A stretch of DNA of 64,000 bases, from the NCBI GenBank assembly GCA_038087875.1, contig CM075988.1, positions 3,596,001 to 3,660,000 of the forward strand. Reading direction: 5' to 3'. Position numbers and translations under genes: made by a program. The DNA is from Malacoraja senta. Its lineage: Eukaryota. Below, one piece after another: positions 1 through 49,241 of the stretch. Position 1 is the stretch's first letter. Each line of letters begins with the position of its first letter. The notes beneath the pieces are model-generated. The model worked only from the letters and a program-made list of their open reading frames with translations, was not told where the DNA came from and made no database searches.

Positions 1-74
1 AACACTTTTCTGTAAACAATCAATTTCATTTATAGGGGAAGAATATTCTATTGGATCTTAAATGCTGCACAAAT

Positions 75-172
75 GGGGCGGTGCTGTGCCGCAGCAGTGG
101 AGTTGCTGCCTTACAGCGTCAGAGGCCCTGGTTCGATCCTTACTACAGGTGCTGTCTGTGCAGAGTTTGTAC
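75..172 (+). mobile_element. HE1-type V-SINE 5' half (continues at 9899-~10005 after DIRS element 1)
   Basis: tRNA-like head with B box ggttcgatcc. gagtttgtac|ATT|ctccctgagaccgtgtggg reconstitutes the V-domain seen in other copies. Confidence 0.88.
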
Positions 173-495
173 ATTTTACTTCGGAGTCACGTGAGTGACT
201 ACGTGAAGAAGAGCCCGTCCAGCCGCACACGCATCATATCGTCAGACGCATAGTGCTGCGACCGTGTGTGGAGGAGCAAAGCTCCTCCAAGCGTTGAGTA
301 AAGTAAAAGTCGGAAGGTAAGTGCTTTCACTTTCGCTTCCAGGTTCGCCTTTCTCGTCAGACTTGTTGGTGGAACTCCACTCAAGTTATTATGGAGAGAG
401 GGCGTAGAGGAAGAAGACGTACCGCAGGTAAACCCCAAGTATGTGAGGGTAGCGGGCATCAGTTAGAGGAGTCAGTGGCAGCTCCTGTTGCGGTC

Positions 496-1090
496 GAAAG
501 TGCCGTTGTACTGCCGGTGGGGCGCAAGGCAGGACAAAAGTCCGTATGACCAGTAGACTCTGATGAGTCAGACCCGGAGGTAAACCCTCCTCAGTCAGAA
601 AATGTTATGGCTGCTAGGGTCGCTAGCTTAGAGTTCCTTATGGGGAAGATGATTTATCAAGAGCCCCCGCAGGAGGAATTTAGTCCGCATTGGCCTATGG
701 GAGATACAGTGCATGGAGTGCCTTGGATGGGACAGGCACAACATTGGCCTACAGGAGAGCCATCAGGAATGTCTGCGCAAAGACAATACATAGGTTGGCC
801 TACAGGAGAGCCAGTGCCCGAAATGCCAGAAAAAAGGCAGTATATGTGTTGGCCTACAGGAGAGCCAATGCCAGAAATGCCTGAACCAAGGCAGTATAAG
901 CGTTGGTTCAGAGAAGTGCCAGCGCCAACAATGTCAGAAGAAAGACAGTATAAGCGTTGGCCTAGAGGTGAGCCAGCGCCAGCAGCACCTGAAATAGGGC
1001 TGCCTATCCGTGGGCCTACAGGAGAGCCCGCGCAGGGGGAATCTGGTAGAGAATATAATATGCGAAGGCCGATGGAAGAGCCAGTGCTAG
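496..1090 (+). repeat. 595-bp direct repeat, copy 1 (left target duplication of the L1)
   Basis: Identical by eye to 5143-5737 except TG at 603-604 versus CA at 5250-5251. Confidence 0.95.
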
Positions 1091-4000
1091 GCTGAGGGCG
1101 AAATGGATAGGTCAAACATACCACTCTTCATTCACTTCAAAATCTAGAGGCACGTCAATTATCATAAGAAAAGGTATACCATTTAAAGCAAAGAATATTA
1201 TAACAGATATAGAAGGGAGATACCTAATAGTTAATGGAGAAATCCATGACACTCCACTTACTTTGGTAAATATATATGCCCCTAACTTTGATAACCCCCA
1301 CTTTTTCAATAAAATCTTCAATATAATTGCAGAGTCAAACTATCAAAATGTTATAATAGGCGGAGACTTTAACTGTGTTTTAGATCCGTACTTAGATAAA
1401 TCAAGTCAAAAACAGAGAGGGAATATGAAATCGAAAACTGGGGAACTCCTCAATACCTACATAAATAACACTAATATAGCAGATGTTTGGAGAATTGTGA
1501 ATCCAACTGGCAGGGAATATTCGTTTTACTCAATGGTACATAAGACATACTCACGTATAGACTACTTTCTGCTGGATACAAAATTAATCCCCCAAACATC
1601 TAATGCAATATACCATACAAATTCAATTTCAGACCATTCTCCACTAACTTTCTTTTTAAAACTGGAAGGATTGTCTAAGAATAATTCATTCTGGAGATTT
1701 AACTCTCAAATTTTAAAAGATCCACAAGCGAGTATATATTTAAAAGAACAAATGGAGGTCTTTTTTCAAACAAATGATACTTCAGATATATCACCTACCT
1801 TACTTTGGGAATCTTTTAAAGCATACATTAGGGGTATTATAATTTCATATCAAGCTTTTCAAAATAAAAAGAATAAGAATGAACAAAGACAGTTAGAAGA
1901 ACTTATTAGACAAATGGATATAGATAATGCTAAAGATCCATCAATAGATAAACATAATAAAATAATAATTTTAAAATTTAAATTAAATAAATTATTATCT
2001 GCCAAACTTATAAGACTTTTTCAAATTACAAAACAAGAGCACTTTGAATTTGGGGATAAACCGCATAAACTTTTGGCTCGCCAGCTAAAAAAACGAGAAA
2101 AGGAACATACTATACTAAAGATCAAATCAGATAAAGGGGAATTATTAACAACACCGAAGGATATTAATAAAAGATTTGCGCAATTTTACGAGAATTTGTA
2201 TACATCTAAAACGATAATTGATTCCAATAATATCACAAAGTTCTTGGATACCTGTAATCTTCCAAAGTTAGAGCTGAAGGAACAAGAGGAACTGGGTGCA
2301 CAAATCTCAATTAAGGAATTAGAAGATACAATAAACTCACTAAAAAATGGAAAAACACCAGGCCCTGATGGATTTACTAATGAATTTTATAAAAGCTTTT
2401 ATGATAAAATAATACCAAGATTACAAAAAATGTACCAATACGCTTTTAAAAAACGAATACTACCTGATACATTAGCGGAATCAACGATTATATTAATACC
2501 TAAGAAAAATAAAGATTTAGAAGAACCTGGCTCATATAGAGCTATAGCATTGTTAAACACAGATCAAAAAATATTAGCGAAAACATTAGCTAGAAGATTA
2601 AGTAAATACATTAGTAAATTAATAAACCCAGATCAGACAGGGTTTATCCCTAAGAGATACTCTTCTAATAATATGAGACGTCTACTCAACATAATGCACT
2701 CACACAAATCTGAAGATCAAGAATTATCAATTATTTCGCTGGATGCTGAAAAAGCATTTGATCAAGTAGAATGGAATTATATGGATAAAGTATTACAAAA
2801 ATTTCAACTGGGAGAGAATTTTATTTTATGGATTAAGTTACTATATAACAAACCTACAGCTAGAATACTTACTAATAACATATTATCCTCGAAATTTCAA
2901 CTATCAAGGGGAAATAGACAAGGATGCTCATTATCACCACAGCTGTTTGCTCTCATTATTGAACCGCTAGCAGAAAAAATTAGAATACACCCTGATATTC
3001 ATGGATATAATACTAAAGACTCATATAATAAAATATCTTTATACGCGGATGATATATTATTGTATATTACAAAACCTCAAATCACTATACCAAATATATT
3101 AAATTTAATTGAAGACTTCGGATCTTTTTCTGGATATAGAATAAATTGGAATAAAAGTGAAATTATGTCAATAAAACCAAAAGATTCAACACATCTTTTA
3201 AAATTCCCTTTTAAAATAGCTACAGAAAAATTTAAATATTTGGGAGTCGAAATTACCAGAGCATATCAAGGTATGCTCAGGGCAAATTTTGACCCCCTAC
3301 TTAATAAACTAAATACATTAATTAAATTCTGGAAAACGCTCCCGATGTCTTTAATAGGCCGAATAAACGCAATAAAAATGATCTTTTTACCACAAATTTT
3401 ATACCTATTTCAATCAATTCCTATATACTTATCTAAGAAGTTTTTTAAAAAACTCGACTCAGAAATCACTAATTTTATATGGGACTATAAATCACATAGA
3501 ATACAAAAAACCCATCTGAATAAATCTAAAGTATTGGGGGGTCTAGCACTACCTAATTTTATGTATTATTATTGGTCAGTAAATATTAAAAACATGATTC
3601 AACTGATGGATAACTCCGCCCAGCAAGTAGACTGGATTGTAATGGAGAAAGAGGATTGCTCCTCTAGAAACATTGGAGCGATCCTCCTCTCTCCATTGAA
3701 ATTGAATAACATAAACTATAATAAGAACCCAATTATTCATAGTACAATCCGTATTTGGAAACAAATAAAACAAAATTTAAAATTAAGAAACTTATCACTT
3801 TTATTACCTATAGTCAATAACCCTTCGTTTAGTCCTTCTATTATAGATAAAGCTTATACACAATGGGATAGACTAGGAATTAAAACGCTTGGTGACTTGT
3901 ATGAAACTGGAAAATTACTTTCATTTCAACAATTACAAATAAAATATAAACTCGGAAATAATCAATATTTTAAATACTTTCAAATATGCGACTATTTGAA

Positions 4001-4712
4001 AAAATATACAAAAGATCATCATAATAACCCAGCAGATGTACTGGACGAGGCAATGCAGATAAAAGCGGAATCAGCAAACTTAATATCATATTTGTACAAT
4101 ATTATCTTAAATGCACAAATACCATCTACGGAGGGTATCAGAAGAGACTGGGAACAAGAGTTAGCTATTAAAATTTCAAAGGAAAGTTGGAATGAATACT
4201 TATTAAAAGTGCATAAATGCTCGATTAATGTAAGACACACTTTAATACAATTTAAAATTTTACATAGATTATATTATTCGAAAACTAAAATTCATAAAAT
4301 TTTCCCAAACGTATCATCTATTTGTGATAAATGTCAATCCCAAGAAGCTACTATAGCGCACTCATTTGTCTTCTGTACAAAAATTCAAAAATTTTGGAAT
4401 GAAATTTTTGAAATCTTTACAAAGTTATTTAAAACAAGACTGATACCCAAAGCAGAATGGATTATCTTCGGAATAACGGAAGATGATCCAGAACTAAATG
4501 TGTTTCAAAAGAAATTAATGGACTATGGGTTAATAACTGGAAAAAAGCTAATTCTAAAATTTTGGAAGAAGGCTCCAATACCAACTATAAATATGTGGAT
4601 TTCAAATATGTTTGAAACATTACACCTTGAAGAGATAAGACTCCTCCTAGCAGGTAAACCAGATCACTTCCACCTGACGTGGTCTGCATTTATAGAATTA
4701 TTACAAACATAG
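1089..4712 (+). CDS. L1 ORF2 (APE endonuclease - RT - CCHC), uninterrupted but lacking its N-terminus
   Basis: Open from the junction (RLRAKWIGQ...NIYAPN, GGDFN, SRIDY, SDH). RT motifs LDAEKAFD, RQGCSLSP, YADD. C-terminal CDKC..H..FC. Confidence 0.93.
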   Translation, partial: RLRAKWIGQTYHSSFTSKSRGTSIIIRKGIPFKAKNIITDIEGRYLIVNGEIHDTPLTLVNIYAPNFDNPHFFNKIFNIIAESNYQNVIIGGDFNCVLDPYLDKSSQKQRGNMKSKTGELLNTYINNTNIADVWRIVNPTGREYSFYSMVHKTYSRIDYFLLDTKLIPQTSNAIYHTNSISDHSPLTFFLKLEGLSKNNSFWRFNSQILKDPQASIYLKEQMEVFFQTNDTSDISPTLLWESFKAYIRGIIISYQAFQNKKNKNEQRQLEELIRQMDIDNAKDPSIDKHNKIIILKFKLNKLLSAKLIRLFQITKQEHFEFGDKPHKLLARQLKKREKEHTILKIKSDKGELLTTPKDINKRFAQFYENLYTSKTIIDSNNITKFLDTCNLPKLELKEQEELGAQISIKELEDTINSLKNGKTPGPDGFTNEFYKSFYDKIIPRLQKMYQYAFKKRILPDTLAESTIILIPKKNKDLEEPGSYRAIALLNTDQKILAKTLARRLSKYISKLINPDQTGFIPKRYSSNNMRRLLNIMHSHKSEDQELSIISLDAEKAFDQVEWNYMDKVLQKFQLGENFILWIKLLYNKPTARILTNNILSSKFQLSRGNRQGCSLSPQLFALIIEPLAEKIRIHPDIHGYNTKDSYNKISLYADDILLYITKPQITIPNILNLIEDFGSFSGYRINWNKSEIMSIKPKDSTHLLKFPFKIATEKFKYLGVEITRAYQGMLRANFDPLLNKLNTLIKFWKTLPMSLIGRINAIKMIFLPQILYLFQSIPIYLSKKFFKKLDSEITNFIWDYKSHRIQKTHLNKSKVLGGLALPNFMYYYWSVNIKNMIQLMDNSAQQVDWIVMEKEDCSSRNIGAILLSPLKLNNINYNKNPIIHSTIRIWKQIKQNLKLRNLSLLLPIVNNPSFSPSIIDKAYTQWDRLGIKTLGDLYETGKLLSFQQLQIKYKLGNNQYFKYFQICDYLKKYTKDHHNNPADVLDEAMQIKAESANLISYLYNIILNAQIPSTEGIRRDWEQELAIKISKESWNEYLLKVHKCSINVRHTLIQFKILHRLYYSKTKIHKIFPNVSSICDKCQSQEATIAHSFVFCTKIQKFWNEIFEIFTKLFKTRLIPKAEWIIFGITEDDPELNVFQKKLMDYGLITGKKLILKFWKKAPIPTINMWISNMFETLHLEEIRLLLAGKPDHFHLTWSAFIELLQT

Positions 4713-5101
4713 GGTGCAAAAGTACTTTAAAAAAATAAAAAATTGAGGTCGGGTAAGGGAGGATGATAGTTGAAGAGTTGGTATGTCCTATTTACGTGAT
4801 GCTCAAAAAAAAACATTTGTTTCTCTTTTTTTCTCTTTCTCTTTTCTTTTCTTAGGGCCTATTTCTTAACTCTTTTTCTTTTTGTTTTTAATTTCGCTCT
4901 TATAGGGTCTTCGTCCTTTTTTGTTGTTACATTTTCTACACTTTTCTACACTTGCACTTTTTCCTTCACTTTCTTCTCTCTTTCAATTTTTTCTTTCTCT
5001 AGTGTAAAAAAATAAATAAAGGGAGTACATTAATTGTAAGAAGATATAAATGACGAGTATTAATGTATGTGGTTGTAATGTAATGTACTTCTAATAAATA
5101 A

Positions 5102-5142
<41 letters not shown>
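1091..5142 (+). mobile_element. 5'-truncated fish-type L1 non-LTR retrotransposon
   Basis: ORF2, T-rich 3' UTR (4713-5106), AATAAA at 5093-5098 and a pure 36-nt poly(A) at 5107-5142; flanked by the 595-bp direct repeat. Confidence 0.95.
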
Positions 5143-5144
<2 letters not shown>

Positions 5145-5737
5145 AAGTGCCGTTGTACTGCCGGTGGGGCGCAAGGCAGGACAAAAGTCCGTATGACCAG
5201 TAGACTCTGATGAGTCAGACCCGGAGGTAAACCCTCCTCAGTCAGAAAACATTATGGCTGCTAGGGTCGCTAGCTTAGAGTTCCTTATGGGGAAGATGAT
5301 TTATCAAGAGCCCCCGCAGGAGGAATTTAGTCCGCATTGGCCTATGGGAGATACAGTGCATGGAGTGCCTTGGATGGGACAGGCACAACATTGGCCTACA
5401 GGAGAGCCATCAGGAATGTCTGCGCAAAGACAATACATAGGTTGGCCTACAGGAGAGCCAGTGCCCGAAATGCCAGAAAAAAGGCAGTATATGTGTTGGC
5501 CTACAGGAGAGCCAATGCCAGAAATGCCTGAACCAAGGCAGTATAAGCGTTGGTTCAGAGAAGTGCCAGCGCCAACAATGTCAGAAGAAAGACAGTATAA
5601 GCGTTGGCCTAGAGGTGAGCCAGCGCCAGCAGCACCTGAAATAGGGCTGCCTATCCGTGGGCCTACAGGAGAGCCCGCGCAGGGGGAATCTGGTAGAGAA
5701 TATAATATGCGAAGGCCGATGGAAGAGCCAGTGCTAG
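5143..5737 (+). repeat. 595-bp direct repeat, copy 2 (right target duplication of the L1)
   Basis: Begins immediately after the L1 poly(A); offset 4647 from copy 1. Confidence 0.95.
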
Positions 5738-6539
5738 ACTTACCTGAAACAGGGATGCCAGAAATTTCCCATCAGGAGGAGGAACATCAAGATTCAGATG
5801 ATGAATTATATGAGGACCAGAGCCTGATAACAGAGCTTAAAATACCAGGCTGGCACAAACGTTTGCTGTTCCCAGATTAACAGGGGAACCTTTGGGAGAT
5901 GAAATAGCAATGACTATAAATTACCTGCTCTCCCATCAGCTCCAGGAATTAACTATGGATGAGACTGTTAAAAAATATGAAACCCCGGAGAATTGTGCAC
6001 TGTTAGCAGTCCCAGCGGTGAATAACGTAATATGGGGCTATTTGGGCATTGGATTACGCTCACAAGAATTAAAATTACAACGAGTGTTGAGATTGCTGGG
6101 GTCAGGCATTACGGCTTTTGCCAGAGGGTTGGATGAAGAACATATATCTGCTTCACAACAAGATGCCTTAGCACTTATGTGTAGTGCGCACTTTGAAATA
6201 AACTGTATTCGTAAGAGTGCAATAAGACCTAATATTCATCCTAAGTTTGCAGGGCTCTGTAAACCATCCAATATACAACGGCCTAATCTGCTTTTTGGAG
6301 AGAATCTAGCAAAAAGGGTAAAAGACCTGAATGAAGAGGCAAAAACCGTGGGAATGATGAAACCACCGATGCTGAGCAGATCAATTTGAAGGCAGTATCC
6401 CTACAGACGGATGTCTACTGCTGGAGAAGGAACAAGCCAATCGTTCCCATATACGCGTTGGCGTACTGCACCTGGGATGCGTGGAGGTTACAATGTGCCT
6501 ACTAAGAGGGGACTACATTTGCCGGCGGCAAACCCCGAG

Positions 6540-8410
6540 GTAGGGGTGTCTGGTCTGGTAAGAAACATAACAAATGTTTTACACTCATAAGTGGGGGGAA
6601 GATTACAATTCTTCCTAAAAGAATGGCAACTAATAACAAATGATTTGTTTATACTGTGCAGCTTTGTGGGATTTAGAATTGAGTTCTATCCACATTTGGA
6701 TCCTCCTACTCAGCATATTTCAAGCAGGTCACGTACTTTCTGAAAGGAAGAGAATACGCAGATCCAGGCAGAATTGAACATTTTGTGCAAAAAAGGTGTA
6801 ATAGAAACGTCAATAGAACAACACCATCAGTTTGTGCAGAGTATTTTTCCAAGAACAAAAAACGATGGTGGATGTAGAATTATTCTGGATCTGACAAGTC
6901 TTAATCCTTTCGTACAGTATAAACATTTTAATATGGAAACATTTACAAACGCCATTCAGCTTGTCACAAGGAACTGCTATATGGCAAGCATAGATCTGCA
7001 AGATGCATATTATTCTGTGGCTGTGCATGGTAATGATCAGAGATATCTAAAATTTAGATGGATGAGTCAGTTATGGCAGTTTAAAGCATTGCCTAATGGT
7101 CTGACTTCAGCTCCAAGGTTAATTACAAAATTACTCAAACCAATTTTAGCTCTGTTAAGAGCTGAGGGCCATGTATTAATGGCTTATTTGGATGACATTC
7201 TGATTGTGGGGGACACTTTGGCTACATCAAAGGCATCAGTGTCAAGAGTCAAGTACATTTTCTAGAAAATGGGATTCATTATTCACCCACAAAAATGGAA
7301 ACTATTACCAAGCACAAAAAATGGATTATTTGGGGTTTACAATTAACTCAGAACACATGGTAATCACTTTGCCAAAAGATAAAAGGCCAAAAGATAAAAG
7401 GCTGCAGTTAATTGAGGGTTGTATTAAGCTAATTAACGAGTACCAGCCCTCAATTACACAAGTGGCAAGCTTGCTGGGCAAATTAATTGCTGATTTTCCA
7501 GCTGTAAAATTTGGACCATTGCATTATCAGCATTTGCAGAGAGCTACGGTACAAGCATTAAGGATTAATGCAGGGCATTTTGACAGGCCCATGCAATTGA
7601 CAATTGAGCCTATTATGGAATTAGAATGGTGGATTAACAATGTCTCTAATGCTTCCAGAAAAGTTCTGGTAGAAACACCTTCTGTTATTCTACAGACTGA
7701 TGTAAGTGCTCTAGAATGGGGTGCAACTAATACTGTTTCCAGCTGTGGAGGTAGATGGAATGTGAAGGAAGTACCTTTGCTTGAAAATCAAGGTATAAAT
7801 TACCTAGAGCTATTAGGAACATTTTATGGGCTTAAAGCATATGTAGCATATGTAAATCATATGGGTGGTATCAAGTCAGAATCTTGTGATAGATTGGCAA
7901 ATATAATATGGACCTGGTGTATTGCCAGGAAAATTTGGCTGTCAGCAATGTACCTACCAGGTAGATTCAATATAGTTGCAGACACAAGGTCATGTAAATT
8001 CAATGATAATACAGAATGGATGTTGCATCATGAAATATTTAAGAAAATTGTGGCACAATTTGGAATGCCAGAGATTGACTTGTTTGCATCAAGACTCAAC
8101 CACCAATTGCCTAAGTATGTGTCATGGGAACCTGATCCTGGTGCAGTAGCGGTGGATGTTTTCTCGCTACATTGGGGTGGTATGTTTCTGTATGCATTTC
8201 CTCCGTTTTGTCTAATTAATCGGTGTATACAGAAAATTAAACAGGACTCAGCCTTGGGGGTTTTGGTGGTGCCAGATTGGCCTACACAGCCATGGTACCC
8301 GCTGGTGTTAAAAAATGATCAAAAAGCCCCTTATGGTTATTCCAAAGCAGGTAAAACTGCTTGTACTCCCTGTAACTGATGAACCACATCCTTTACATGA
8401 TCATATTGGT
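6540..8410 (+). pseudogene. DIRS element 1 pol: reverse transcriptase, RNase H and Dam-like methyltransferase domain
   Basis: RT motifs IDLQDAYY, LPNGLTSAP, YLDD. RNase H motifs LQTDVS..WG and INYLEL. MT-like IDLFASRLN...YAFPPF. Contains stops, frameshifts and a deletion within RNase H near 7840. Confidence 0.9.
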
Positions 8411-8418
8411 TTGTTGAT

Positions 8419-9413
8419 TTGCAGATTCTAAGAAGGCCATATCTTGGAAGTGGATTATCAGAGCGTACGGTGGATGTTATGGCAGCAGCCTGGAGGAATA
8501 GTATCCAGAAGCAGTACATTTCTTATATAAGGAAATGGGAGGTGTTTTGTTCAGAAAAGAATATTGCATATAACACTGCAGACATTTCAGATGTGTTAGA
8601 GTTTCTTTCAACTCTTTATTTTGAATTAAATTTAAGCTACAGTGCAATCAATACTGCAAGGAGTGCTCTCTCTGCATATTTATGCAGGGAATCAGAACAA
8701 AATCCAATAGGATCACATCCTTGGGTCTGTAGGTTTATGAAGGGAATTTTCAACTCCAATCCTCCTAGACCCAGGTATACAGAAATCTGGAATGTAAAAG
8801 ATATACTTATGCTGCTGCGTGAATGGAATCCTATTGCAGCTCTGTCATCGGCCAAAATCACCATGAAGTTAGTTATGCTCATGGCGTTAGTTTCAGCACA
8901 GAGAGTGCAAACGTTACAGAAGTTAAGAATAGGCAGGATGAAAGTAGGGGCAGATGCCATTACATTCTATGTCTATGATTTGCTCAAACAGAGTAGACCT
9001 GGGTTCACAGGATGCAAGTTGTTTTTTTCAGCATTTCCTACGGATCCACGTCTATGTGTAGTAGCATATCTAAGATGTTTCATTGAAGCAACCAGAACCT
9101 TAAGAGGTGCAGAATCAGCATTTTTGTCAGCTATAAAAAACCTCATAAGAAGGTGTCGACACAGACTATTTCAAGATGGCTGAAGCAGGTGTTGATTTAT
9201 GCAGGTATTGATACTGACAAATTTTAATCTCATTCCGCCAGGTCGGCAGCAACATCGGCGGCCAAGGATTCAGACGTTCCAATAGACCTTATCCTCGCGG
9301 CCGCAGGATGGGCAAGTGAACAGATGTTTCACAAATATCACCACAAGGAGATTAAAGATCCCGGGTTGTTTGGTGGTGCCGTGCTGGATTCAGTATTAAA
9401 TCCCCCATTATGA
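8419..9413 (+). pseudogene. DIRS element 1 tyrosine recombinase
   Basis: YSAINTARSALS; SAQRVQTL (catalytic R). After a frameshift near 9125, HSARSAATS...AAGW. One in-frame TAA near 9225. Confidence 0.9.
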
Positions 9414-9564
9414 TAATGGGTGTCACTATTGTTGTAATAAATAAAACCATTAACTGATTACATTAATGTTGTGGTTGTGCATTGTTGATTGTTTTACTCA
9501 GAGTCAATCAATGCAGTGACCGCCTGGATTTGAATCCACGGCGTGAAATCACAGAGCTTTGAAA

Positions 9565-9677
9565 TCTTCACGTAGTCGCTCACGTGACTCCGAAGTAAAA
9601 TAGTAAGATTAAACGAGAACTTACCAGTTTGAAGTTTGATCTTTATTTTATGAGGAGTTACGTTGAGGGATTATGTG
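9565..9677 (+). repeat. Internal complementary region (ICR) of DIRS element 1
   Basis: The first half is the reverse complement of 173-209 and the second half is the reverse complement of ~9820-9898. The junction cgaagtaaaatagtaag corresponds to a circle junction. Confidence 0.93.
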
Positions 9678-12345
9678 CCCTCCACTCCCACCCTCATAAA
9701 GATAGAGCTGGTAGTTCTAGTCTTTATGTATCTTACTATCATACTTCAGTAATTGTCGTCTGTGATTTCACTCCGCTGCTTTGAAGATTGACGTGTGTGC
9801 GGCTGGACGGGCTCTTCTTCACGTAGTCCCTCAGCGTAACTCCTCATAAAATAAAGATCAAACTTCTAACTGGTAAGTTCTCGTTTAATCTTACTATTCT
9901 CCCTGAGACCGTGTGGGTTTTCTCCAGGTTCTCCAGTTTCCTCCAACATTCCAAAGACATGAAGGTCTGTTGGTTAATTGGCTTCTTTAAATTGTCCCTA
10001 TTATGTTTGTAAGTGATAGGAGCAGAACTAGGCCATTCAGCCCATCGAGTCTACTCCGCCATTCGATCATGACTGACCTATCTCTCCCATCTCAACCCAT
10101 GCTCCTGCCGTCTCCCCATAACCCCTGATACCCGTACAAACTTTGCCTTAAAAATATCCATTGACTTGGCCTCCACAGCCTTCTGTGGCAATGAATTGTG
10201 ATACTGTATGATACGAAACAATAGGACTTTATTAATTCCAGAAGGGAGATTGGTCTGCCAAGAGTCATAAAACACAACAAGATACATAAAACATAAAATT
10301 AAAGTGACGAGTGGAAACACCAGGATTGGGGATGTATGAAGATTGGGGAGGGGAGGGGGTAGTCAGTTTACCCCACGACAGAAGGGGGAAGAGATGTACA
10401 GTTTGATAGCCAGAGGGAAAAAGGATCACCTCTGGCATTCTGTGCTGCATCTTGGTGGAACCAGTCTGGTTGACCAGTGTGTCATGGAGGGGGTGAACTG
10501 TATTGTCCAAGACCTGATGTGCGGGTGATTGTTGGTCGACGTGGACTCGGTGGGCCGAAGGGCGTTTCCACACTATATCTCTCAACTAAACGAGGAGGTA
10601 GGACTTCTTCAGTTATCATTTCCCTGATATCTCTTTGCACTGCACAGTATCGGGTTTGACATTGACCGAGACTGCCTTGTTTTCGAATGCCTACATTGGA
10701 ATGAGCCTCTGTATCACGATGCAATGCAACCCTGTGAGTCTGAAGAAGGGTCCTGACCCAAAACGTCGACTGTCCATTCCCTGCATAGATGCTGCCTGAC
10801 CCGCTGAGGTACTCCAGCACTTTGTGTTTTGCTCAAGGTTCCAGCACCTGCAGCTCCATTAATCATTCCGCCCAGTGTTCCTGAACTCTTCATCAATCAG
10901 GGCATTGAGTTCAGGAGTTGGGATAGATTCAACAGAAACAGCAAACACTGAAATCTTGAGTAAAACACAAAGTGCTGGAGGAACTGAACAGGTCAGGCAG
11001 CATCTGCAGAGGGAATGGATCGCTGCAGAGGCAACGTTTTAGACCGTGGACTTTCTTCATATGAGCGCATGAAATGGGATGTTAAATGACAGTTGTACAA
11101 GATGCTGGTGAGGACACACTTGGAGTACTGTGCTTGGAACGAGTTTTGATGAGACACCTTGGTTGGCGTGGACACGTTGGGCCTCTATCCATGCCGTACG
11201 ACTCTATGACTCTCGAACTTTCTCTGCACTTTAAAAATACTGAGCTCCAAAACCCATCACATGCATGAATGTTTCCAAGGTCTATCAAGGGGTGTGTTTT
11301 TCATTAATAGACCGATAACTGTGTGCTGATCAAAGATTAAAGTTTCAATTGCCGGCATTGAGCATTTTCTTTGGACCATTTTCTTTTACCCAAAGGTTTT
11401 AATGTCCCCAATGGGGAATTGGAGATAACATCAGACCTTGAAGTTGGACTTCAGATTTGGTGTCTGGTTCTAAGTCACTGGAGCCTTTAACAAAGGTGAT
11501 TTAATTTGGCTACAGCACAGAATTGCTTTTGTTTCATGCAGCCACAATTGCAATGAGTGGATGGTTTACTATTAATTGGAGCATATTTTTTGGATACAGT
11601 TTGACTCAGTTATAGTGGGGCCCAGAGTTTAGTTTAGTTTAGAGATACAGGCCCTTTGGCCCACTGAGTCCATGCCAACCAGCGATCACTCATTCTATCC
11701 TACACACTAGGGGAAATTTATAGAGGTATTTTACAGAAACTGATTAAACTACAAACTTGCATGTCTTTGGAATGTGGGAGAATGATTCCCCGTGACCCGG
11801 AGAAAACTCACGCGGTCACGGGGAGAACATACAAACTGCACACAGACAGCATCTGTAGTCAGGATTGAACCCGGGTCTCTGGCGCTGTAAGGCAGCAACT
11901 CTACCGCTGCGCCACCGTGCCACCCGGCTCAATGATAGCTGTTTTTTCGATTGGATTGTCCCAATGCACAGTTGTGATTGTGGCTTTCCCTGGGAGGGTC
12001 GCAGTCATGAGATGAAGATGCAGCAGAGAAGCGGGGGGCAGGATGAGGCTCCGATCAGAGACTTTGCACCCTTGTGTGTGGCATAGAGCAGGGAGACCTC
12101 CCTCAGCTCACCACACTGCAGATCATCGTCCATCCTGACATGTTGCAGCCCCTGGGACCTAACACTGAATTAACAATTTCAGATAATCAGCCTTTCCAGT
12201 TTATTACGGTGCTGATGTAAGGTCAACCACCCATAACATTTTCTGTTCTCTTTATCATTGTTTCTCGTGCATATCATTCATACATTTGTTCAATATCTCT
12301 CTACATCACCATCTATATCTCTTGTTTCCCTTTCCCCAGACTCTC

Positions 12346-21019: not shown

Positions 21020-21770
21020 TAGAAACATAGAAACATAGAAAATAGGTGCAGGAGTAGGCCATTCGGCCCTTCGAGCCTGCACCGCCATTCAATATGATCA
21101 TGGCTGATCATCCAACTCAGTATCCTGTACATGCCTTCTCTCCATACCCCCTGATCCCTTTAGCCACAAGGGACACATCTAACTCCCTCTTAAATATAGC
21201 CAATGAACTGGCCTCAACAACCTTCTGTGGCAGAGAATTCCACAGATTCACCACTCTCTGTGTGAAAAATATTTTTCTCATCTCGGTCCTAAAAGATTTC
21301 CCCCTTATCCTTAAACTGTGACCCCTTGTTCTGGACTTCCCCAACATCGGGAACAATCTTCCTGCATCTAGCCTGTCCAACCCCTTAAGAATTTTGTAAG
21401 TTTCTATAAGATTCCCCCTCAATCTTCTAAATTCTAGCGAGTACAAGCCGAGTCTATCCAGTCTTTCTTCATATGAAAATCCTGACATCCCAGGAATCAG
21501 TCTAGTGAACCTTCTCTGTACTCCCTCTATGGCAAGAATGTCTTTCCTCAGATTTGGAGACCAAAACAGTACGCAATACTCCAGGTGTGGTCTCACCAAG
21601 ACCCTGTACAACTGCAGTAGAACCTCCCTGCTCGTATACTCAAATCCTTTTGCTATGAATGCTGACATACCATTTGCTTTCTTCACTGCCTGCTGCACCT
21701 GCATGCCTACTTTCAATGACTGGTGTACTATGACACCCAGCTCTCGTTGCATCTCCCCTTTTCCTAATCG
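21020..21770 (-). mobile_element. CR1/HER1 LINE 3' fragment
   Basis: VRPHLEYCVLFWSP...LEFRRLRGNLIETYKI...FFTQRVVNLWNSLP; (tatgtttc)n tail. Confidence 0.9.
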
Positions 21771-23029
21771 GCCTAATTTAGAGGGATATAGGCCAAATGT
21801 GGGCAAATGGGACCAGTTTAGATGAGGCATCTTGGTTAGCATGGACCAGTTGAGCCAAAGGACCTGTTGCTGTTCTGTATGACTATGAGTCCAAGGGGAA
21901 AGATTGATACTTGTGGTTTAAGTTAGCTTCAGCCAGGAAGTGTTTAAAATAAATGCAGAAAATGTTGGAATTACTCAGCGGGTTAGGCAGCATATGTGGA
22001 GAGATCAGGAGAGGTAACGTTTGAGAACTTGGAAATATTGGGAGTGGAAAAACCTTGTTGGGAACGTTGAGAAAGGGGAGGGGATGGCAAATAGAAGGAA
22101 TGGGTTTTGCTAGGGAGGAGAGCAGGAGAGATCGCCTTCCTTCAGAGGTACATCCACCATAGCGTCATAGTCACAGTGTGGAAACGGGCTCTTCGGCCCA
22201 ACTTGCCCACACCGGCCAACACGTCCCAGCTACACTAGTCACCCCTGCCTACGCTTGGTCCAAATCTCTCCAAATCTGTCCTATCCATGTCCCTGTCTAA
22301 CTGTTTCTTAAACGTTGGGATAGTCCCAGCCTCAACTACCTCCTCTGGCAGCTCGTTCCATACACCCACCGCCCTTTGTGTGAAAAAGTTACCCCTCAGA
22401 TTCCTATTAAATGTTTTCCCATTCACTTTAAATCTATGTCCTCTGGGCAAGAGACTGTGCATCTTCCCGATCTTTTCCTCCCATGATTTTATACACCTTG
22501 AGAAGATCTTTCTTTCGTACTTAGTGTAAGCAGAAGTTTGTTTATCACATCGATAAATATAATATTGACTAATTTAATACTAACAGATAAACTAATCAGT
22601 TAGAAACAAATTAGAAACGTATGCTAATTGAATACTTGGAATGGGTTGTGATATGGATGGCAGGGCAGATGAAGTGTTGCATTGTGGGTAGAAATGAACT
22701 GCAGTTGCTGGTTTAAACCGAAGATGGACGCAAAAAGCTGGAGTAACTCAGCGGGACAGGCAGCAACTCTGGATCGGAGGAATGGGTGACGTTTCTGGTT
22801 GACACCCTTCTTCAGACTGGCTGGGGGTAAGGGAAATGAAAGATATCGACATCCTATCGAGATCTTTAGAGTTTGAAGGTCAATTGTGATGTGTGATATT
22901 TGAACAGAGGGTTAGCCTCTGATGGGGGCAGTAAAAGAGAGGCTGTAGAGTGGGCGTGAAGCGATAACTGAAGGAATTCCTCATATAAAATGTCTGAGAC
23001 TTCTGAATATGGGAGAGCAGAGCTTGAAC

Positions 23030-27123: not shown

Positions 27124-28100
27124 TCTGAAGAAAGGTCTCGATCCGAAACATCACCTATCCGTGTTCTCCAGAGATGCTGCCTGACCTGCTGACTTACTCC
27201 AGCACTCTGTGTCCTTTTGTTTAAACCAGCATCTGCAGCTCTTTGTTTCTATATGTACAATGACACTCAATGTTTATGTGTCTCCTCTATATCCCGCAGC
27301 ACCGCTCTCACTCCCCATCCCCCTACTCGTAACAAGGACAGAGTCCTCCTTGTCCTCACCTTCCACCCTATCAGCCGTCGCATACAACATATAATCCTCC
27401 GACATTTTTGCCACCTCCAATGGGATCCCACCACTGGCCACGTCTTCCCATCTCCTCCCCTGTCTGCTTTCCGCAGAGACCGTTCCCTCCGTAACTCCCT
27501 GGTCAATTTGTCCCTCCCCACCCAAACTGCTCCCTCCCCTGGTACTTTCCCTAGCAACCGCAGGAAATGCTACACTTGTCGTTTTACCTCCCCCCTCGAC
27601 TCCATCCAAGAACCCAAACAGCCTTTCCAGGTGAGGCAGAGGTTTACCTGCACCTCCTCCAACCTCATCTATTGCATCCACAGTTCCAGATGCCAACTGC
27701 TCTACATTGGTGAGACCAAGCGTAGGCTTGGCGATCGCTTCGCCCAACACCTCAGCACAGTTCGCAATAACCAATCTGATCTCCCGGCGGCCCAGCACTT
27801 CAACTCCCCCTCCCTTTCCAAATATGACCTTTCTGTTCTGGGCCTCCTACATTGCCAGAGTGAGGCCCAGCGCAAATTGGAGGAGCAGCACCTCATATTT
27901 TGCTTGGGTAGTTTACACCCCAGCAGTATGAACATTGACATCTCCAATTTCAGGTAGTCCTTGCTTTCTCCCTCTTTCCCCTCCCCTTCACCGCTCTCCC
28001 ACAGCCCACTGTCTCCGCCTCTTCCTTTTTTTTTCCCGCTCCCCCCCCGACATCAGACTGAAGATGGGTCTCGACCCGAAACGTTGCCTGTTCCTTCCCT
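27124..28100 (+). mobile_element. Penelope-like fragment: terminal repeat, GIY-YIG region, terminal repeat
   Basis: NLIYCIHSSRCQLLYIGETKRRLGDRF; hammerhead motifs at ~27125 and ~28058. Confidence 0.88.
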
Positions 28101-29720: not shown

Positions 29721-31867
29721 CTCCTTAAAGAACAATTGGCTCCTGTGTCTCCCAAGATCAAAGGTAAAACCTCAATCTTTCTCATTCATTCCCAATCCAT
29801 TGTTATCCACAAAACCCAGTGGACCTTCCACTGTGCGCACCCCATGCACTATTCCACCCTTGGCCATGTAGACATTCCATGCCATGGCCTTCCTTAGCTC
29901 CAGGTCATCGTGCAGAGTCTTTTACCCCGAGTTGGTACCAGAGGACATAGGTTTAAGGTGAGAGGAAAACATTTAATATGGACATGAGGGGCAACTTTTT
30001 TACACATAGGATGGTAGGTATATGGGACAAGGTAGTTGAGGCAGGTCCTATCACAATGTTTAAAAAACATTTGGACAGGTACATGGATAGGATAGGTATA
30101 GAGGGATATGGCCTGTTTCCACACTATATAGCGAAGTGACTGTGATTCCCTCTATGGGTGTTGAGGGTCGTGCCTCCAGCTGCAGTAAACCTCCTCATTC
30201 TCAATGTTTAAGAAGGAACTGCAGAAGCTGGAATGTCTACCTCTTCATTCTCAATATGTCCCGAACACCCGCCTTCTCCTACCCCATCACTGGCGTGGCT
30301 CAGTGTAACTTAACTCTACTGTGCAACTTCAATGGCCCGGGATGTGAAAAGGGCTGTATAAATGCAGGGTATTATTGGCATGAAGGGTCGGGGATTAGCT
30401 TCAGGGAGAGGTTGGTCAAACTTGGATTGCTCCCCATGGAACACCAAAGGTTGAGGGGAGACCCGATGGGCGTTTATAAAATGACCAGAGGCATCGATAA
30501 GGTAGACAGTCAGAACCTTTTTCCTATATCAAATACTAGAGAGCACAGCTTAAAGATGAAAGGGGATGTCCAGAGCAACTGTTTGACATAGTGAGTGGCG
30601 GGTTGCTGGAACCTGCTGCTGGAGGTGGTGGTGATGGAGGCAGAAACAATTGCGACATTTAAGAAATAGGCAGGAAATGGAGGGATAAGGATTATGTGCA
30701 TCCAGATAAGAGTTGTCCTTGGTATATTCTTAGGCGTAGGCACTGCGTGGTAAAGGGCCTGGCCCTGTGTTGTGTTGTTCAATGTGCAATGCAAGAACAA
30801 CCTCCAATGAACTGGGCCAGGAAGGATGGCACTGTGCCAAGACGGTGTGATGTCAGAGCACCTGGACGCTAGAGCAGTGGCCAAAGTAATGCCAGATTGT
30901 TGAAAGATGCCAATTCACGGCACAGAATGACAGAGCACCACCCACCCACCGCATTGCCAGGGCACCACGAGATGCCAGAACACCAGCAGATGTTATAGTC
31001 CTGGAGTCTAACAGCGTGGAAACAGGCCCTTCAGCCCAACTTACCCACACCGGCCAACATGTCCCAGCTACACTAGTGCCACCTGCCTGCATTTGGTCCA
31101 TATCCCTCCAAACCTGTCCTATCCATGTACCTGTCTAACTGTTTCTTAAACGTTGCGATAGTCCCTGCCTCAACTATCTCCTCCAGCAGCTTGTTCCATA
31201 CACCCACCACCCTTTGTGTGACAAAGTTACCCCTCAGATTCCTATTAAATCTTTTCCCCTTCACCTTAAACCTATGTCCTCTGGTCCTCGATTCACCTAC
31301 TTTGGGCAAGGGACTCTGTGCATCTACCCGATCTATTGAAAAAGTTACCCCTCAGGTTCCTATTAAATCTCTCCCACCCTTCAACCTAAGCCTATGACCT
31401 CTGGTTCTCAAGTACCCTACTCTGGGCAAGAGACACTATGCCATCACCCGATCTATTCTGCTCATGATTTTGTAAACTTCTATCAGATCAATAGGATAAT
31501 CGAGAGAAATTGGTTTGAATGTGTGTGGGGGGGAAGTGATTTACACAACCTCTCTTCATTGTGCCCCACCTGGATGCATGCACATTCTCCCTACCCTTCC
31601 CCTTGTGCCCTTCCACCTATATCCCTTCCTCTGGCTTCACATTTCATAACCCTTCTCTGCTTATTTCCTTATGTCACACTTTTTATCTTTTCTTCTCTGG
31701 CCTTTGTCCATTCATTTGCCAATCCCCCCCCACCCCTCCTCAGATGTATCCACCTATCACTTGCCCCACCCTCACCTCTCTTCCAGCTCTCTAAACCCCT
31801 CCCATTACAATCAACCACGAGAAGGATCCTGACCCGACATGTCACCTATACATGGTCTCCAGAAGCT

Positions 31868-33673
31868 GCCCTGCCTGAACGAGCCTCCAACCTCATCGTT
31901 CCCCAGCCCCGCACAGCCCGATTTTACCTTCTCCCCAATATCCACAAACCTGACTGTCCCGGTAGACCCATTGTCTCTGCCTGTTCTTGCCCCACCGAAC
32001 TCATCTCCACCTACCTTGACTCCATCCTATCCCCCTTGGTTAAATCCCTCCCTACCTATGTTCAAGACACCTCAGACACTCTCTGTCGTCTCCGCGCATT
32101 CCACTCTCTAGGCCCTCACCCCCTCATCTTCACCATGGACGTCCAGTCACTCTACACCTCCATCCCCCACCAGGATGGTCTCAAAGCCCTCTGGTTCTTC
32201 CTCGACCAGAGAAGCAACCTATACTCGGTCAATGATACCCTCCTCCGCCTAGCGGAGTTGGTCCTCACCCTCAATAACTTCTCTTTTGACTCCTCCCATT
32301 TCCTCCAAATACAAGGAGTAGCTATGGGCACACGCATGGGCCCCAGCTACGCCTGCCTCTTCGTCTGGTACGTCGAATAATCCTTGTTCAATACGTACCA
32401 GGGCCCCATCCCCGACCTCTACCTCCGCTACATCGATGATTGTTTTGGTGCCACATCCTGCACCCACACACAACTGACTGACTTCATCCACTTCACCACC
32501 AACTTCCATCCGGCACTCAAATACACCTGGACCATTTCCAACACTTCCCTACCATTCCTTGACCTCACTAACTCCATCGCAGGTGATAGACTTCTGACCG
32601 ACATTCACTATAAACCTACTGACTCCCATGGCTATCTGGACTACACTTCTTCCCACCCTGCTTCCTGTAAGGACTCCATCCCCTACTCCCAATTCCTCCG
32701 TCTACGCCGCATCTGCTCCTAGAATGAGGCGTTACACACCAGGGCATCTGAAATGTCCTCATTCTTCAGGGAACGGGGATTCCCCTCCTCCACCATAGAT
32801 GAGGCTCGCACCAGGGTCTCTTCCATACCCCGCAACACTGCTCTCTCTCCTTATCCCCCCCACTCGCAACAAGGGCAGAGTCCCCCTAGTCCTCACCTTT
32901 CACCCCACCAGCCGTCACATACAACAAGTAATCCTCCGTCAGTTTCGCCACCTCCAACGTGACCCCACCACTCGCCACATCTTCCCATCTCCCCCCATGT
33001 CTGCCTTCCGCAAAGACCGCTCCCTCCGTAACTCCCTTGTCAATTCTTCCCTTCCCTCCCGTACTACCCCCTCCCCGGGCTCTTTCCCTTGCAACCGCAA
33101 GAGATGCTACACTTGTCCCTTTACTTCCCCCCTCGACTCCATTCAAGGACCCAAGCAGTCGTTCCAGGTGCGACAGAGGTTCACCTGCATCTCCTCCAAC
33201 CTCATCTATTGCATCCGCTGCTCTAGATGTCAGCTGATCTACATCGGTGAGACCAAGCGGAGGCTTGGCGATCGTTTCGCCGAACACCTCCGGTCGGTCC
33301 GCAATAACCAACCTGACCTCCCGGTGGCTCAGCACTTCAACTCCCCCTCCCATTCCGTATCCGACCTCTCTGTCCTGGGTCTCCTCCATGGCCAGAGCTA
33401 GCAACACCGGAAATTGGAGGAACAGCACCTCAGCACCTTGGGGAGTCTGCATCCTGGGGGCATGAACATTGAATTCGCCCTATTTTGTTAGCCCCTGCTG
33501 TCTCCTCCCCTTCCTATCTCTCCCTCAGCCCTCGGGCTCCTCCTCCTTTTTCCTTTCTTCTCCCCGCCCCACCCCCCCACCCCCCCCCCCCCCTATCACT
33601 CTGAAGAAGGATTTCGGCCCGAAACGTTGCCTATTTCCTTCGCTCCATAGTTTCTCCAGCATTTTTGTGTACC
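31868..33673 (+). mobile_element. Penelope-like element fragment, same family as 54778-57458
   Basis: RT C-terminal half (GVAMG, RYIDD) and GIY-YIG with several stops; hammerhead motif at 33601. Confidence 0.92.
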
Positions 33674-41954: not shown

Positions 41955-44365
41955 GTGTGTGTGACACACACACACACTGTGACACTCACTGTCTGGGGTA
42001 TGTGTGTGTGTGTGTGTGTGTGCCACTGTGTGTGGGTGTGTATGAGACCATGCGTGTCACAGTGTACGTGTGTGTGTCACTATGTGTGTATCACTGAGTG
42101 TGAACGTACATGTTTCACCATGATTGTGTGCACCATATCATGTGCATGTCGCTATCGGAGTGACTACATGTGTGACTGTATGTGTGTGTGTGTGCTGTGT
42201 GCTTCATTGCATGTGTGTGTTACTGTGTGTGTGAAACTGTGTGTGACTATGTGTGCATGTGTGTGGGTGAGTGTGTGCGCGTGTGAGACTGTGTGTGACT
42301 GTGTGAATGAGACTGTGCTTGTGTGTGTGTGTGCGTTTGCTTGTGGGTGTGGAAATATTTGGATATATATACTGCCCATATTTGCACAAATATATGCAAA
42401 TATGGTGGTACGGTGGTGCAGCGGCAGAGTTAGAGAGCCGGGTTCGATCCTGACTACGCGCGCTGTCCGTACGGAGTTTATACTTTCTCCCCGTGACCCG
42501 TGTGGGTTTTCTCAGGGAACTCCAGTTTCCTCCCACACTCCATAGACGTACAAGTTTGTAGGTTAATTGGCTTTGTATAAATGTCAATTGTCCCTCGTGT
42601 GTGTAGGATAATGTTAGTCTGCGGGGATCGCTGGTCGGCGCAGACTTGGTGGGCCGAAGGGCCTGTTTCCGCGCTGTATCTCTAAACTAAACTAAACTGT
42701 GCAGACTCCTGTGCATATTTATATATGATTGTTTACGTGATTGCATGTGATTGTGAACGTACACTGTGTATGTGTGTCCCTTTGTGCCTACTTGTCTGTG
42801 TATGTGTGTCCCTTTGTGCCTACTTGTCTGTGTATGTGTGTCCCTTTGTGCCTACTTGTCTGTGTGTGTGTGTCCCTTTGTGCCTACTTGTCTGTGTATG
42901 CAGGTAGACAAAGATGCTGGAGAAACTCTGCGGGTGAGGCAGCATCTATGGAGCGAAGGAAATATAAATTGTCTGTGTATGCATGTGGATGTGGATGTAT
43001 TTGTGCGTATGTGTGTGTGTCTGCATGTCACTGTGAGTATGTCACTGAGTTTGTGTGTCATTGTGTTTGTGTGTGGCACGGTGTCCATCTGTGTGCTTCT
43101 GTGTGTGTGTATATCACTGTGACTGTGTGTATGTGTGCGCATGCGTGTGTATGTGTGTGTGTATGTGTGTGTATATCACTATGTGACTGTGTGTATGTGT
43201 GTCACCGTGTGATCGTGTATGAATGTGTCACTGTGTGTGTGTGTCATTGTGTGATGGTGTGTGATTGTATCACTGTGACAGTGTGTGACTGTATGATTGT
43301 GTGTGACAATATGTGTGTGTCACTGTGTGTTTATCACTGTGTGACAATATGTGAGTGTGTGTGTTTGACAGTGTGAGAGTGTGAGAGTGTGTCAGTGTGT
43401 GTCAGTGTGTGTCAGTGTGTGTGTGTGTCAGTGTGTGAGTGTGTGACAGTGTGTGTGTCAGTGTGTGTGTCAGTGTGTGTGTCAGTGTGTGTCAGTGTGT
43501 GTGTCAGTGTGTGTGTGTCAGTGTGTGTGTCAGTGTGTGACAGTGTGTGTGTCAGTGTGTTTCAGTGTGTGTCAGTGTGTTTCAGTGTGTGTCTGTGTGT
43601 GTGTGTCCGTGTGTGTGTCAGTGTGTGTCAGTGTGTGTGTCAGTGTGTGTGTGTCAGTGTGTGTGTCAGTGTGTGACAGTGTGTGTGTCAGTGTGTTTCA
43701 GTGTGTGTCAGTGTGTTTCAGTGTGTGTCTGTGTGTGTGTGTCCGTGTGTGTGTCAGTGTGTGTGTCAGTGTGTGACAGTGTGTGTGTCAGTGTGTGTCA
43801 GTGTGTGACAGTGTGTGTGTGTGTCAGTGTGTGTGTGTCAGTGTGTGTCAGTGTGTGACAGTGTGTGTGTGTGTGTCAGTGTGTGTGTGTCAGTGTGTGT
43901 CAGTGTGTGAGTGTGTGTGTGTGTCAGTGTGTGTGAGTGTGTGTCAGTGTGTGTCCGTGCGCATCAGTGTGCGTGTCAGTGTGTGTGTCAGTGTGTGACA
44001 GCCTGTGTCAGTGTATCTGTGTGTGTGTCAGTGTGTGTGTCAGTGTGTGTGTCAGTGTGTGAGTGTGTGTGTCAGTGTGTGTGAGTGTGTCAGTGTGTCA
44101 GTGTGTCAGTGTGTGTGTCAGTGTGTGTGAGTGTGTGTGTCAGTGTGTGTGTCAGTGTGTGTGAGTGTGTGTGTCAGTGTGTGTGTGTCAGTGTGTGTCA
44201 GTGTGTGACAGTGTGTGAGTGTGTGTGTGTGTGTGTGTCAGTGTGTCAGTGTGTGTGAGTGTGTGTGCCAGTGTGTGTGTGTCAGTGTGTGTCAGTGTGT
44301 GTGTCAGTGTGTGTGTCAGTGTGTGTGACAGTGTGTGTGTCAGTGTGTGTCAGTGTGTGTGAGTC
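41955..44365. repeat. TG-rich microsatellite complex, including a ~32-bp tandem repeat (42766-42900) and (GT)nCA arrays (43380-44365)
   Basis: Visible directly; interrupted by a V-SINE at 42405-42697. Confidence 0.95.
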
Positions 44366-44420
44366 ACAGTGAGACTCAGTAATCGCCGCATGGTACACTG
44401 TGAAGAGTGGAGTGTTTTAC

Positions 44421-44547
44421 CGTTAACGGTCAGGCTGACCTCCCTCTCCCCGGCACCAACTCGTGGCACGACAGCCCGGCAGACATACTTCCCAGCATCC
44501 TCCTGGGTGACGGCCTTCAGGGTCATGACGTTATCATTGCTGAGAAC
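44421..44547 (-). CDS. KIRREL3: KIRREL3 coding exon, Ig4 C-terminal half (127 nt)
   Basis: Boundaries ctgcag|GTT CTC...GTT AAC G|gtaaaa. Translates [42 protein letters not shown](G). Confidence 0.96.
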
Positions 44548-45097
44548 CTGCAGGAGCGGGGCGAGAGGGCAGACACGTTAGAGGACATCGTGACTTCCTT
44601 ACCTTTTAGTTTAGAGATACAGCACGGAAACAGGCCCTTCGGCCCACCGAGTCCGCACCGACCAGTGATCCCCGCAAAGTATCACCATCCTACACACACT
44701 AGGGAAAATTTACATTGATACCAAGCCAATTAACCTACAAACCTGGACGTATTTGGAGTGTGGGAGGAAACAGGAGATCCAAAAAAAACCACGAAGGTCA
44801 CGGGGAGAACGTACAAACTCCGTATAGACAGCACCCTTAGTTAGGATCGAACCCGGGTGTCTGGTGATCTAAGGCAGTAGATCTACCGCTGCGCCACCAT
44901 GCTGACCTCTTGTTTCAGGCTTGTAGGTCATTGTCCACCTTCCCCATCCCACCCCTCTCAACCCAGGTCTCCATCTCAGCAATGACTGAGGATCAGGGCA
45001 ATGAGTGCAATTAGACCACCACAAGATAAGCAATAGAAGCCACTCGGCCCATCGAGCCTAGTATGCTACTGAGTAAGGTCATGGCCGCAGGTCCGGT

Positions 45098-45796
45098 TAT
45101 CCACACTCTTTCATTCCCAATATCCACACTCTCATTCCCAATATCCACTCCCTCTCATTCCCAAAATCCACTCTCTCATTCCCAATATCCACACTCTCAT
45201 TCCCAATATCCACACTCTCTTTCCCAATATCCACACTCTCATTCCCAATATCCACACTCTCTCATTCCCAATGTCCACTCTTTCTCATTCCCAATATCCA
45301 CTCTCTCATTCCCAATATCCACACTCTCATTCCCAATATCCACACTCTTTCCCAATATCCACACTCATTCCCAATATCCACTCCCTCTCATTCCCAATAT
45401 CCACACTCTCATTCCCTTTATCCACACTCATTCCCAATATCCACACTCTCTCATTCCCAATATCCACACTCTCATTCCCAATATCCACACTCTCTCATTC
45501 CCTTTATCCACACTCTCATTCCCAATATCCACACTCTCTCATTCCCAATATCCACACTCTCATTCCCTTTATCCACACTCTCATTCCCAATATCCACACT
45601 CTCATTCCCAATATCCACACTCTCATTCCCAATATCCACACTCTCATTCCCAATATCCACACTCTCTCATTCCGAATATCCTCTCTCATTCCCAATATCC
45701 ACACTCTCTCATTCCCAATATCCACACTCTCTCATTCCCAATATCCACACTCTCTCATTCCCAATATCCACACTCTCATTCCCAATATCCACACTC
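45098..45796. repeat. Minisatellite, 21-23-bp unit tcattcccaatatccacactc(tc)
   Basis: About 30 tandem units visible. Confidence 0.95.
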
Positions 45797-48182: not shown

Positions 48183-49241
48183 CTGCACAGTTGGAGAGAG
48201 AGAGATGAGGTGTGAGAGATGGTGAAGGGTGGGCTAGCTCTACTAATGACTAAGTCATCTGTTTGAACGATCAATGTTGGCCAAGATGCCAGCTTTGCCT
48301 ATTCTGTACTGACCTTCCCACTATCAAACAGTCGATGCCTCAGAAAGGCAGCCAGCATCATCAGAGACCCACCAACATGGCGACACACTCATTTTCACCA
48401 CTGCCATCGGGGAGAAGGTACAGGAGCCTTAAAACTGTAGTCATTTCATTGTTCCATATCGGGACATATGACAAGAAAACACTCTTGACTATTCTTCTTT
48501 AAAATACTAAAACTTTGTTAAAGCCTCAATTTACAGCGTATCTGAAAGACAGGACTGTGTCAATGCTCTCATAGTCATAGAATCACAGTCATACAGCTTG
48601 GAACCAGGCCCATCGGCCCAACTTGCCCACACCGACCAACATGTCCCATCTCCACAAGCCACAGTTGCCCGCGTTTGGTCCATATCCCTCTAAACTGCCC
48701 TATCCATGTACCTGTCCAAATGTTTCTTAAACGTTGCGATACTATCTGCCTCAACTACCTCCTCCAGCAGCTCGTTCCACCACCCTCTGTGTGAAAGGGT
48801 TATCCCTCAGGTTCCTATTAAATCGTTCCCCCCTCACCTGAAACCCAAGTCCTCTGGTTCTTGATTGCCCTACTCCGGGCAAGAGACGCTGCGCGTCTAC
48901 TCAGCCAATTCCTGTCCTTGCTCAATCTTCTGTTCTGCACTCTGGGGTACAATGTGAACCTGTCACCCTTTCCGTCCAAGGTGAAAGTGTTATTTCTTGT
49001 TCTGCTGTGTTATGGCATCCAGTCACAATTTTACATCAACGCTGTATTGCAGCTTTAATGGATAGGAAAGGTTTAGAAGGATATGAGGCAAACATGGGCA
49101 GATGGGACTCGTGTCGATGGGTAACTTGGTTTGTATACCTTGGGTGTGCATGCAAAGAATCTCCCTGTGCCTAGTCACATGTCACAATAAATATTCCATC
49201 CAGTGAGGAGTGAGATCCTTCACCAGAGGCCAACACCAACA

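Follow-up and report, generated by a model that had tools for sequence, protein, structure and literature searches.

Insertions of L1 retrotransposons usually lie between target-site duplications (TSDs) of about 7-20 bp, although large-TSD insertions of human L1 were reportedly recovered in cultured cells by Gilbert in 2002 and 2005 and by Symer in 2002. Here we analyze a stretch of 64,000 nucleotides from Malacoraja senta (assembly GCA_038087875.1, contig CM075988.1, positions 3,596,001-3,660,000 of the forward strand; hereafter the window, whose own positions are used throughout), in which a 5′-truncated L1 lies inside a decayed DIRS1-type retrotransposon, between two direct copies of 595 bp of the gag sequence of its host. 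In HeLa cells, TSDs longer than 100 bp accompany up to 10% of L1 events, and in cells deficient in nucleotide excision repair (NER) the median reaches 1,495 bp (Servant et al., PMC5223499). Human L1 insertions in cultured cells resemble the present one in combining a poly(A)-tailed L1 with a target duplication of hundreds to thousands of bases, for which a distal second nick or a replication end has been proposed, but they are engineered and come from HeLa or NER-deficient cells, whereas the L1 described here is endogenous, non-mammalian, and resides in an assembled animal genome. Among 25 insertions of the zebrafish element ZfL2-2 recovered from wild-type DT40 cells, one has a TSD of 1,228 bp (PMC2666801), and ZfL2-2 thus provides a fish long interspersed element (LINE) with a long TSD in repair-proficient cells, albeit from the L2 clade and in a cell-culture assay.

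Other parallels come from tumors and L1-induced clones, in which the two halves of a direct duplication meet at a single L1 that has an endonuclease (EN) motif at its 3′ end, and for which sister-chromatid or break-induced replication models have been advanced. Duplications of 1-10 kb have been interpreted as large TSDs that arose by break-induced replication (bioRxiv 10.1101/2024.12.14.628481), and a 22.6-Mb L1-bridged duplication has been attributed to sister chromatids (PMC7058536). These events are somatic and range from 1 kb to 22.6 Mb, whereas the duplication studied here measures 595 bp and is apparently inherited. The R9 element of bdelloid rotifers is R2-like and carries a restriction-like endonuclease (RLE). 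It offers a natural germline insertion of a non-long-terminal-repeat element with a long TSD, but one of 126 bp and, by the title cited, specific to ribosomal DNA (as cited in PMC9977147). Heritable LINE insertions between long duplications are also found with Dualen-4b_cRei of Chlamydomonas, over half of whose duplications exceed 50 bp, with a median of 900 bp (PMC9977147); there the long duplications are habitual and the element has both an RLE and an apurinic/apyrimidinic endonuclease (APE), in contrast to the APE-only L1 represented by one copy in the window. The first-pass annotation of this DNA had considered such insertions, if common in this L1 family, an undescribed route for duplicating host sequence, a claim that does not survive the reports of large TSDs for human L1 (PMC5223499), zebrafish L2 (PMC2666801), tumors (PMC7058536; bioRxiv 10.1101/2024.12.14.628481), and, heritably, Dualen (PMC9977147).

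The two copies occupy 496-1090 and 5143-5737 on the plus strand, each 595 bp long and offset by 4,647, and they differ from each other only at two adjacent positions, TG at 603-604 against CA at 5250-5251. Copy 1, in which a gag stop (547-549) precedes 54-bp tandem units (744-1028), ends where L1 homology begins, and copy 2 begins at the base directly after a pure run of 36 A residues (5107-5142) and continues natively into the remaining gag at 5738. Hence, the earlier description of an L1 bounded exactly by two 595-bp gag copies is borne out in its coordinates and at both boundaries. Megablast with dust detects no further direct repeat of ≥60 bp and ≥95% identity in the window, which contains no N. 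While its length does not match the TSD of a canonical insertion by target-primed reverse transcription (TPRT), the arrangement is that of a long-TSD LINE insertion, with the target of the same locus directly duplicated at both ends of the L1 and a single-copy empty state inferred from family members. It is likely that one germline L1 integration created an oversized TSD, through a top-strand break or a template jump 595 nt from the nick.

The inserted element carries a 5′-truncated ORF2 (1091-4712, plus strand), whose open frame of 1,206 residues (1092-4709) matches the Pfam families Exo_endo_phos, RVT_1, and zf-RVT, contains a CCHC motif, and is colinear over residues 7-1182 with residues 60-1232 of human ORF2p (E 1.8e-166). 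This protein has no match to an RLE family, and its colinearity with human ORF2p persists up to the end. A 3′ untranslated region (4713-5106), covered by family contigs, leads to an AATAAA just ahead of the tail. An ORF2 with APE, reverse transcriptase (RT), and CCHC that is colinear with L1 ORF2p, together with a poly(A) tail after a polyadenylation signal, assigns the element to the L1 clade. Owing to the truncation, ~55-60 residues are missing from the N-terminus of the APE, among them the QETH motif; in the 12 best ORF2 homologues, the motif found at the junction lies at residues 57-89, after the QETH motif. ORF1 has been removed by the same truncation, and its family PF02994 occurs in the same product in 3 of the 120 ORF2 homologues listed. 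Contigs related to the window were found in seven runs, which shared 0.25-0.58 of its words (best 0.58 of 986 words), and four of these runs were compared with window 1-5095, a span that excludes copy 2 and the 3′ junction; the comparison covers 32 of ~95,000 pieces, 24 of ~1,870 loose ends, 40 of 260 substitutions, and the best 15 of 46 joints. Against its family contigs, the L1 differs at 25 of 2,615 and 32 of 3,493 letters (~1%, 16 pieces listed). Two other origins of the gag-L1 arrangement were ruled out: an in-frame gag-ORF2 fusion, as the gag frame terminates at 1093-1095, and a 3′ transduction, as copy 2 comes after the tail and continues into native gag.

Both junctions look like products of retrotransposition. 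Under the TPRT model, the first-strand nick would fall within the top-strand sequence TC/GAAAG (494-500), which is three transitions away from TT/AAAAA and does not match TT/AAAA, but retains YY/RRRRR (Y, pyrimidine; R, purine). Since the latter pattern is found at only 56 of 5,078 plus-strand positions of the DIRS element (1.1%) and at 11 of 700 in the gag stretch, the site had been undervalued when it was called a poor match for the L1 EN. At the 5′ junction, L1 contigs from two studies (record 1 of run X1 and record 25 of run X4) align from 1088, and their 200 and 326 nt further upstream are unlike the window. These alignment ends suggest that target and L1 probably share a 3-nt microhomology (TAG, 1088-1090); a microhomology had been suspected at this junction before, in the shorter form AG. 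In 9 of the 12 best ORF2 homologues, arginine precedes the L-[RK] motif, in agreement with 3 nt. Microhomology is typical at the 5′ ends of truncated L1s (PMC4245944).

That the 595-bp segment is single-copy in the DIRS family, a point left by the first-pass annotation for alignment to intact copies, is upheld by the gag homologue P0121, identified with HMMER, in which the segment is present once and residues 45-249 align with 5143-5886 in one frame across 5737/5738. Shared-word searches for gag homologues returned none among 1,016 and 468 candidates, and a pattern scan of metagenome contigs gave six matches, none extending past 22 nt, which were taken as chance. Family DIRS contigs cross 495/496 (8 contigs in run X3), and a joint from 1090 to 496 is absent from the best 15 of 46 joints (largest depth 202), with a summed contig depth of 37,000-140,000 over 511-1020 in run X2. 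The origin of the duplicate is indicated by nine letters in the copy that depart from the family (among 40 of 260 substitution rows), including the stop at 547: at each of them, at least 92% of the family depth carries another letter, and the window letter is common to both copies. Differences between species or subfamilies could explain some of the nine, but an active element would hardly carry the gag stop, and the shared stop together with the eight other letters argues that the duplicate was made from this very locus or its allele. Run X2 matches the flank at 1-119 with no differences, and window letters 294, 887, 1055, and 1058 have zero depth in X2 and X3; because contigs drop rare variants, these depth gaps are not evidence either way.

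A course of events can be proposed from the standard TPRT model, which supplies the nick and the fill-in. ORF2p would nick the bottom strand at 495/496 and prime reverse transcription on the poly(A), and cDNA synthesis would cease ~55-60 codons before reaching the start of ORF2. The cDNA end would then join, via the 3-nt microhomology, to a top-strand end at 1090, which lies 595 nt downstream instead of the usual 7-20 nt, and the two copies would arise once both single-stranded stretches of 595 nt had been filled in. For the distal end, two origins are conceivable: a distant nick followed by strand displacement, or break-induced copying from an end linked to replication, on this chromatid or its sister. 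The long-TSD reading, already put forward at first annotation, is preferred on account of native DIRS continuity at the ends of both copies, the single copy in the gag homologue, the 5′ microhomology, and the degenerate EN site. Several points weigh against it. No junction-spanning read or contig was seen in the contig runs among the pieces listed; natural human insertions almost all have TSDs shorter than 30 bp, and when large-TSD somatic calls were checked in one study, 10 of 10 proved to be chimeras (PMC4805530). Moreover, the TG/CA doublet is ill explained by plain decay (~1.3%) and would suit two alleles, and the nick site differs from TT/AAAAA by three changes.

Two alleles are at the center of a two-step history that would lead to an identical final structure: a short-TSD L1 inserted at 496, after which a microhomology switch joined the empty homologue, at 1090, into the ORF2 of the filled one, or L1s inserted at 496 and near 1090 recombined. 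In this scenario, TG and CA are simply an allelic difference, and a Y/RRRRR site does exist 17 nt upstream of 1090 (near 1073); such a site, however, is found 7-20 nt upstream of 52% of gag positions, making its presence uninformative, and with a single L1 ORF2 in 64 kb, two insertions 595 bp apart are unlikely. Furthermore, the divergence of the L1 shows no step along the 16 listed family pieces, and a second rare event is required, whereas long TSDs have been measured among the products of integration itself (PMC5223499); L1-flanked insertions number 1 versus 219 deletions in 1,019 humans (PMC12350158). Overall, we regard the two-step history as unlikely. Ranking next, and unlikely too, is an assembly artefact, in which a chimeric read or a haplotype join produced a false duplication. 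It would account for the lack of a spanning read among the listed contig pieces, it has a precedent in the large-TSD calls that turned out to be chimeras (PMC4805530), and opposite-strand C>T at a CpG-like site may reflect strand-specific base-calling errors in two reads. Yet a misjoin would need to lead from 1090 of this very locus into the interior of the L1 via 3 nt, the AT-rich ORF2 of 3.6 kb is free of frameshifts, which argues for an accurate consensus, and the window has neither another such duplication nor an N.

A switch of template by the RT is very improbable. Here, ORF2p would have passed from the L1 RNA onto a DIRS transcript at 1090 and copied gag backwards, the cDNA then annealing to the homologous target. 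L1 5′ chimeras with other RNAs are known and are mostly sense (PMC13174262), and gag and L1 have the same sense here; the shared stop at 547 and the eight other letters, however, demand an RNA from this dead locus. Finally, the 595 bp might have been in tandem in intact DIRS copies, with the L1 landing at the seam, and the gag does hold shorter tandem units of 54 bp. This explanation is largely excluded, given that P0121 has the segment once, that a 1090-to-496 joint is missing from the best 15 of 46 despite the depth in X2, and that locus-level decay is common to both copies.

With two differences in 595 bp (95% interval 0.04-1.2%), the copies have diverged little, and this low divergence, the open ORF2, and the pure tail imply that the L1 is young and arrived after the decay of the DIRS element. 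Between the ends of the latter and its internal complementary region, 5 of 116 positions disagree, and the three divergences, between the copies, between L1 and family, and at the DIRS ends, fit the proposed order of events.

The doublet itself allows several readings. From an ancestral CG, the TG of copy 1 would be reached by C>T on the top strand, and the CA of copy 2 by C>T on the bottom strand. By TPRT geometry, the left copy would retain the original top strand and the right copy the original bottom strand, a polarity with which the doublet agrees, as it would by chance in one of two cases. Two independent CpG transitions at one site in this manner have a probability of ~1.3% (20 sites, equal rates, noticed post hoc). 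Inverting 2 bp of one state would also explain the doublet, as would the presence of two alleles. The family offers no row for 603-604 among 40 of its 260 substitutions, and the P0121 alignment has a gap at the site. An origin at a hotspot of activation-induced deaminase was considered and dropped, as three other CpGs in the copy with the same two-sided WRC context are unchanged. More far-reaching, and improbable in our estimation, is the proposal that this fish-type, APE-only L1 family routinely makes germline target duplications of hundreds of bases and that the doublet is a strand-partition fossil of one CpG, as expected if both 595-nt strands were exposed; if true, there would be in-vivo evidence of an intermediate that is single-stranded over a long stretch, and duplications the size of exons would have a real route in a vertebrate.

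The structure in the window is most likely a natural long-TSD L1 insertion, of which inherited vertebrate examples seem to have been rarely recorded. A search of the literature, mostly open-access text without supplements, turned up no case of a vertebrate L1 inherited together with a TSD hundreds of bases long, and the accessible portions of PMC13192797, PMC12633430, and bioRxiv 2022.02.16.480772 contain no long-TSD case. Genome surveys search TSD windows of 5-30 bp (PMC2912911; PMC13174262), and since they limit the TSD to 30 bp, such cases may be undercounted. Long L1 TSDs have been regarded as peculiar to HeLa, repair-deficient, or tumor cells (PMC4805530, Appendix 1); a confirmed inherited case of 595 bp in a wild vertebrate would mean that such a product can go through the germline and be retained, and nested insertions of this kind would supply a ready means of counting long TSDs. 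The duplication described here, a single copy in a dead transposon, is likely without a function of its own.

The host is a DIRS1-type tyrosine-recombinase retrotransposon (173-9897, plus strand), decayed by stops and frameshifts and delimited by family loose ends at 173, repeats, and domain matches. Its type follows from gag, RT, a methyltransferase-like region, and a tyrosine recombinase, combined with inverted terminal repeats and an internal complementary region at ~9565-9677; in the ORFs at 6744-9183, RVT_1 is matched with E 2e-13, and PCIF1_WW (E 3e-4) and Phage_int_SAM_4 (E 2.5e-5) are both matched below the curated cut-offs. The element interrupts a short interspersed element (SINE), the left half of which (71-172, plus strand) aligns with a SINE copy near 58165-58255 and the right half (9898-10000, plus strand) with the continuation of the same copy from ~58253; as both flanks are halves of one SINE, this is a single locus and not a join between loci. 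The SINEs would also suit the elasmobranch label that the first-pass annotation gave to the L1 family. The single-copy 5′ part of gag upstream of the duplication (391-495, plus strand) begins with an ATG at 391 in the frame common to both copies, which is kept between them because 4,647 is a multiple of 3. The prediction that deleting the L1 and one copy would restore a continuous ORF1 is therefore correct as regards the frame at the junction, but not for the ORF as a whole, in view of the stop present in both copies (547-549 and 5194-5196) and the frame change of the gag homology near 5850-5880.

The 54-bp units of the DIRS gag encode 18 residues each and amount to 5.3 copies at 744-1028 and again at 5391-5675, and P0121 is similar in this respect. 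Family contigs of runs X2 and X3 hold ~12 extra bases at 482-483, just upstream of the nick site, which are absent from the window. The pol region of the element has a perfect 15-bp tandem duplication at 7371-7402. A second decayed DIRS1-type element, from a related family, is located at 49239-53581; its terminal and internal complementary sequences are nearly the same, while its interior has ~65% identity over 1.5 kb.

Other repeats in the window include a minus-strand frame of 266 residues at 21117-21917, without a Pfam match, which presumably corresponds to the C-terminal part of a CR1/L2-type LINE ORF2. Copies of an element with weak Pfam matches to RT and GIY-YIG, which we take to be Penelope-like, are present at 27193-27957, 31367-33479, and 55209-57242 (minus strand), and two of them form an inverted pair (897 bp, 94%). 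Long TG-rich, 21-bp, and 19-20-bp tandem arrays extend over 42169-45797 and 61575-62054.

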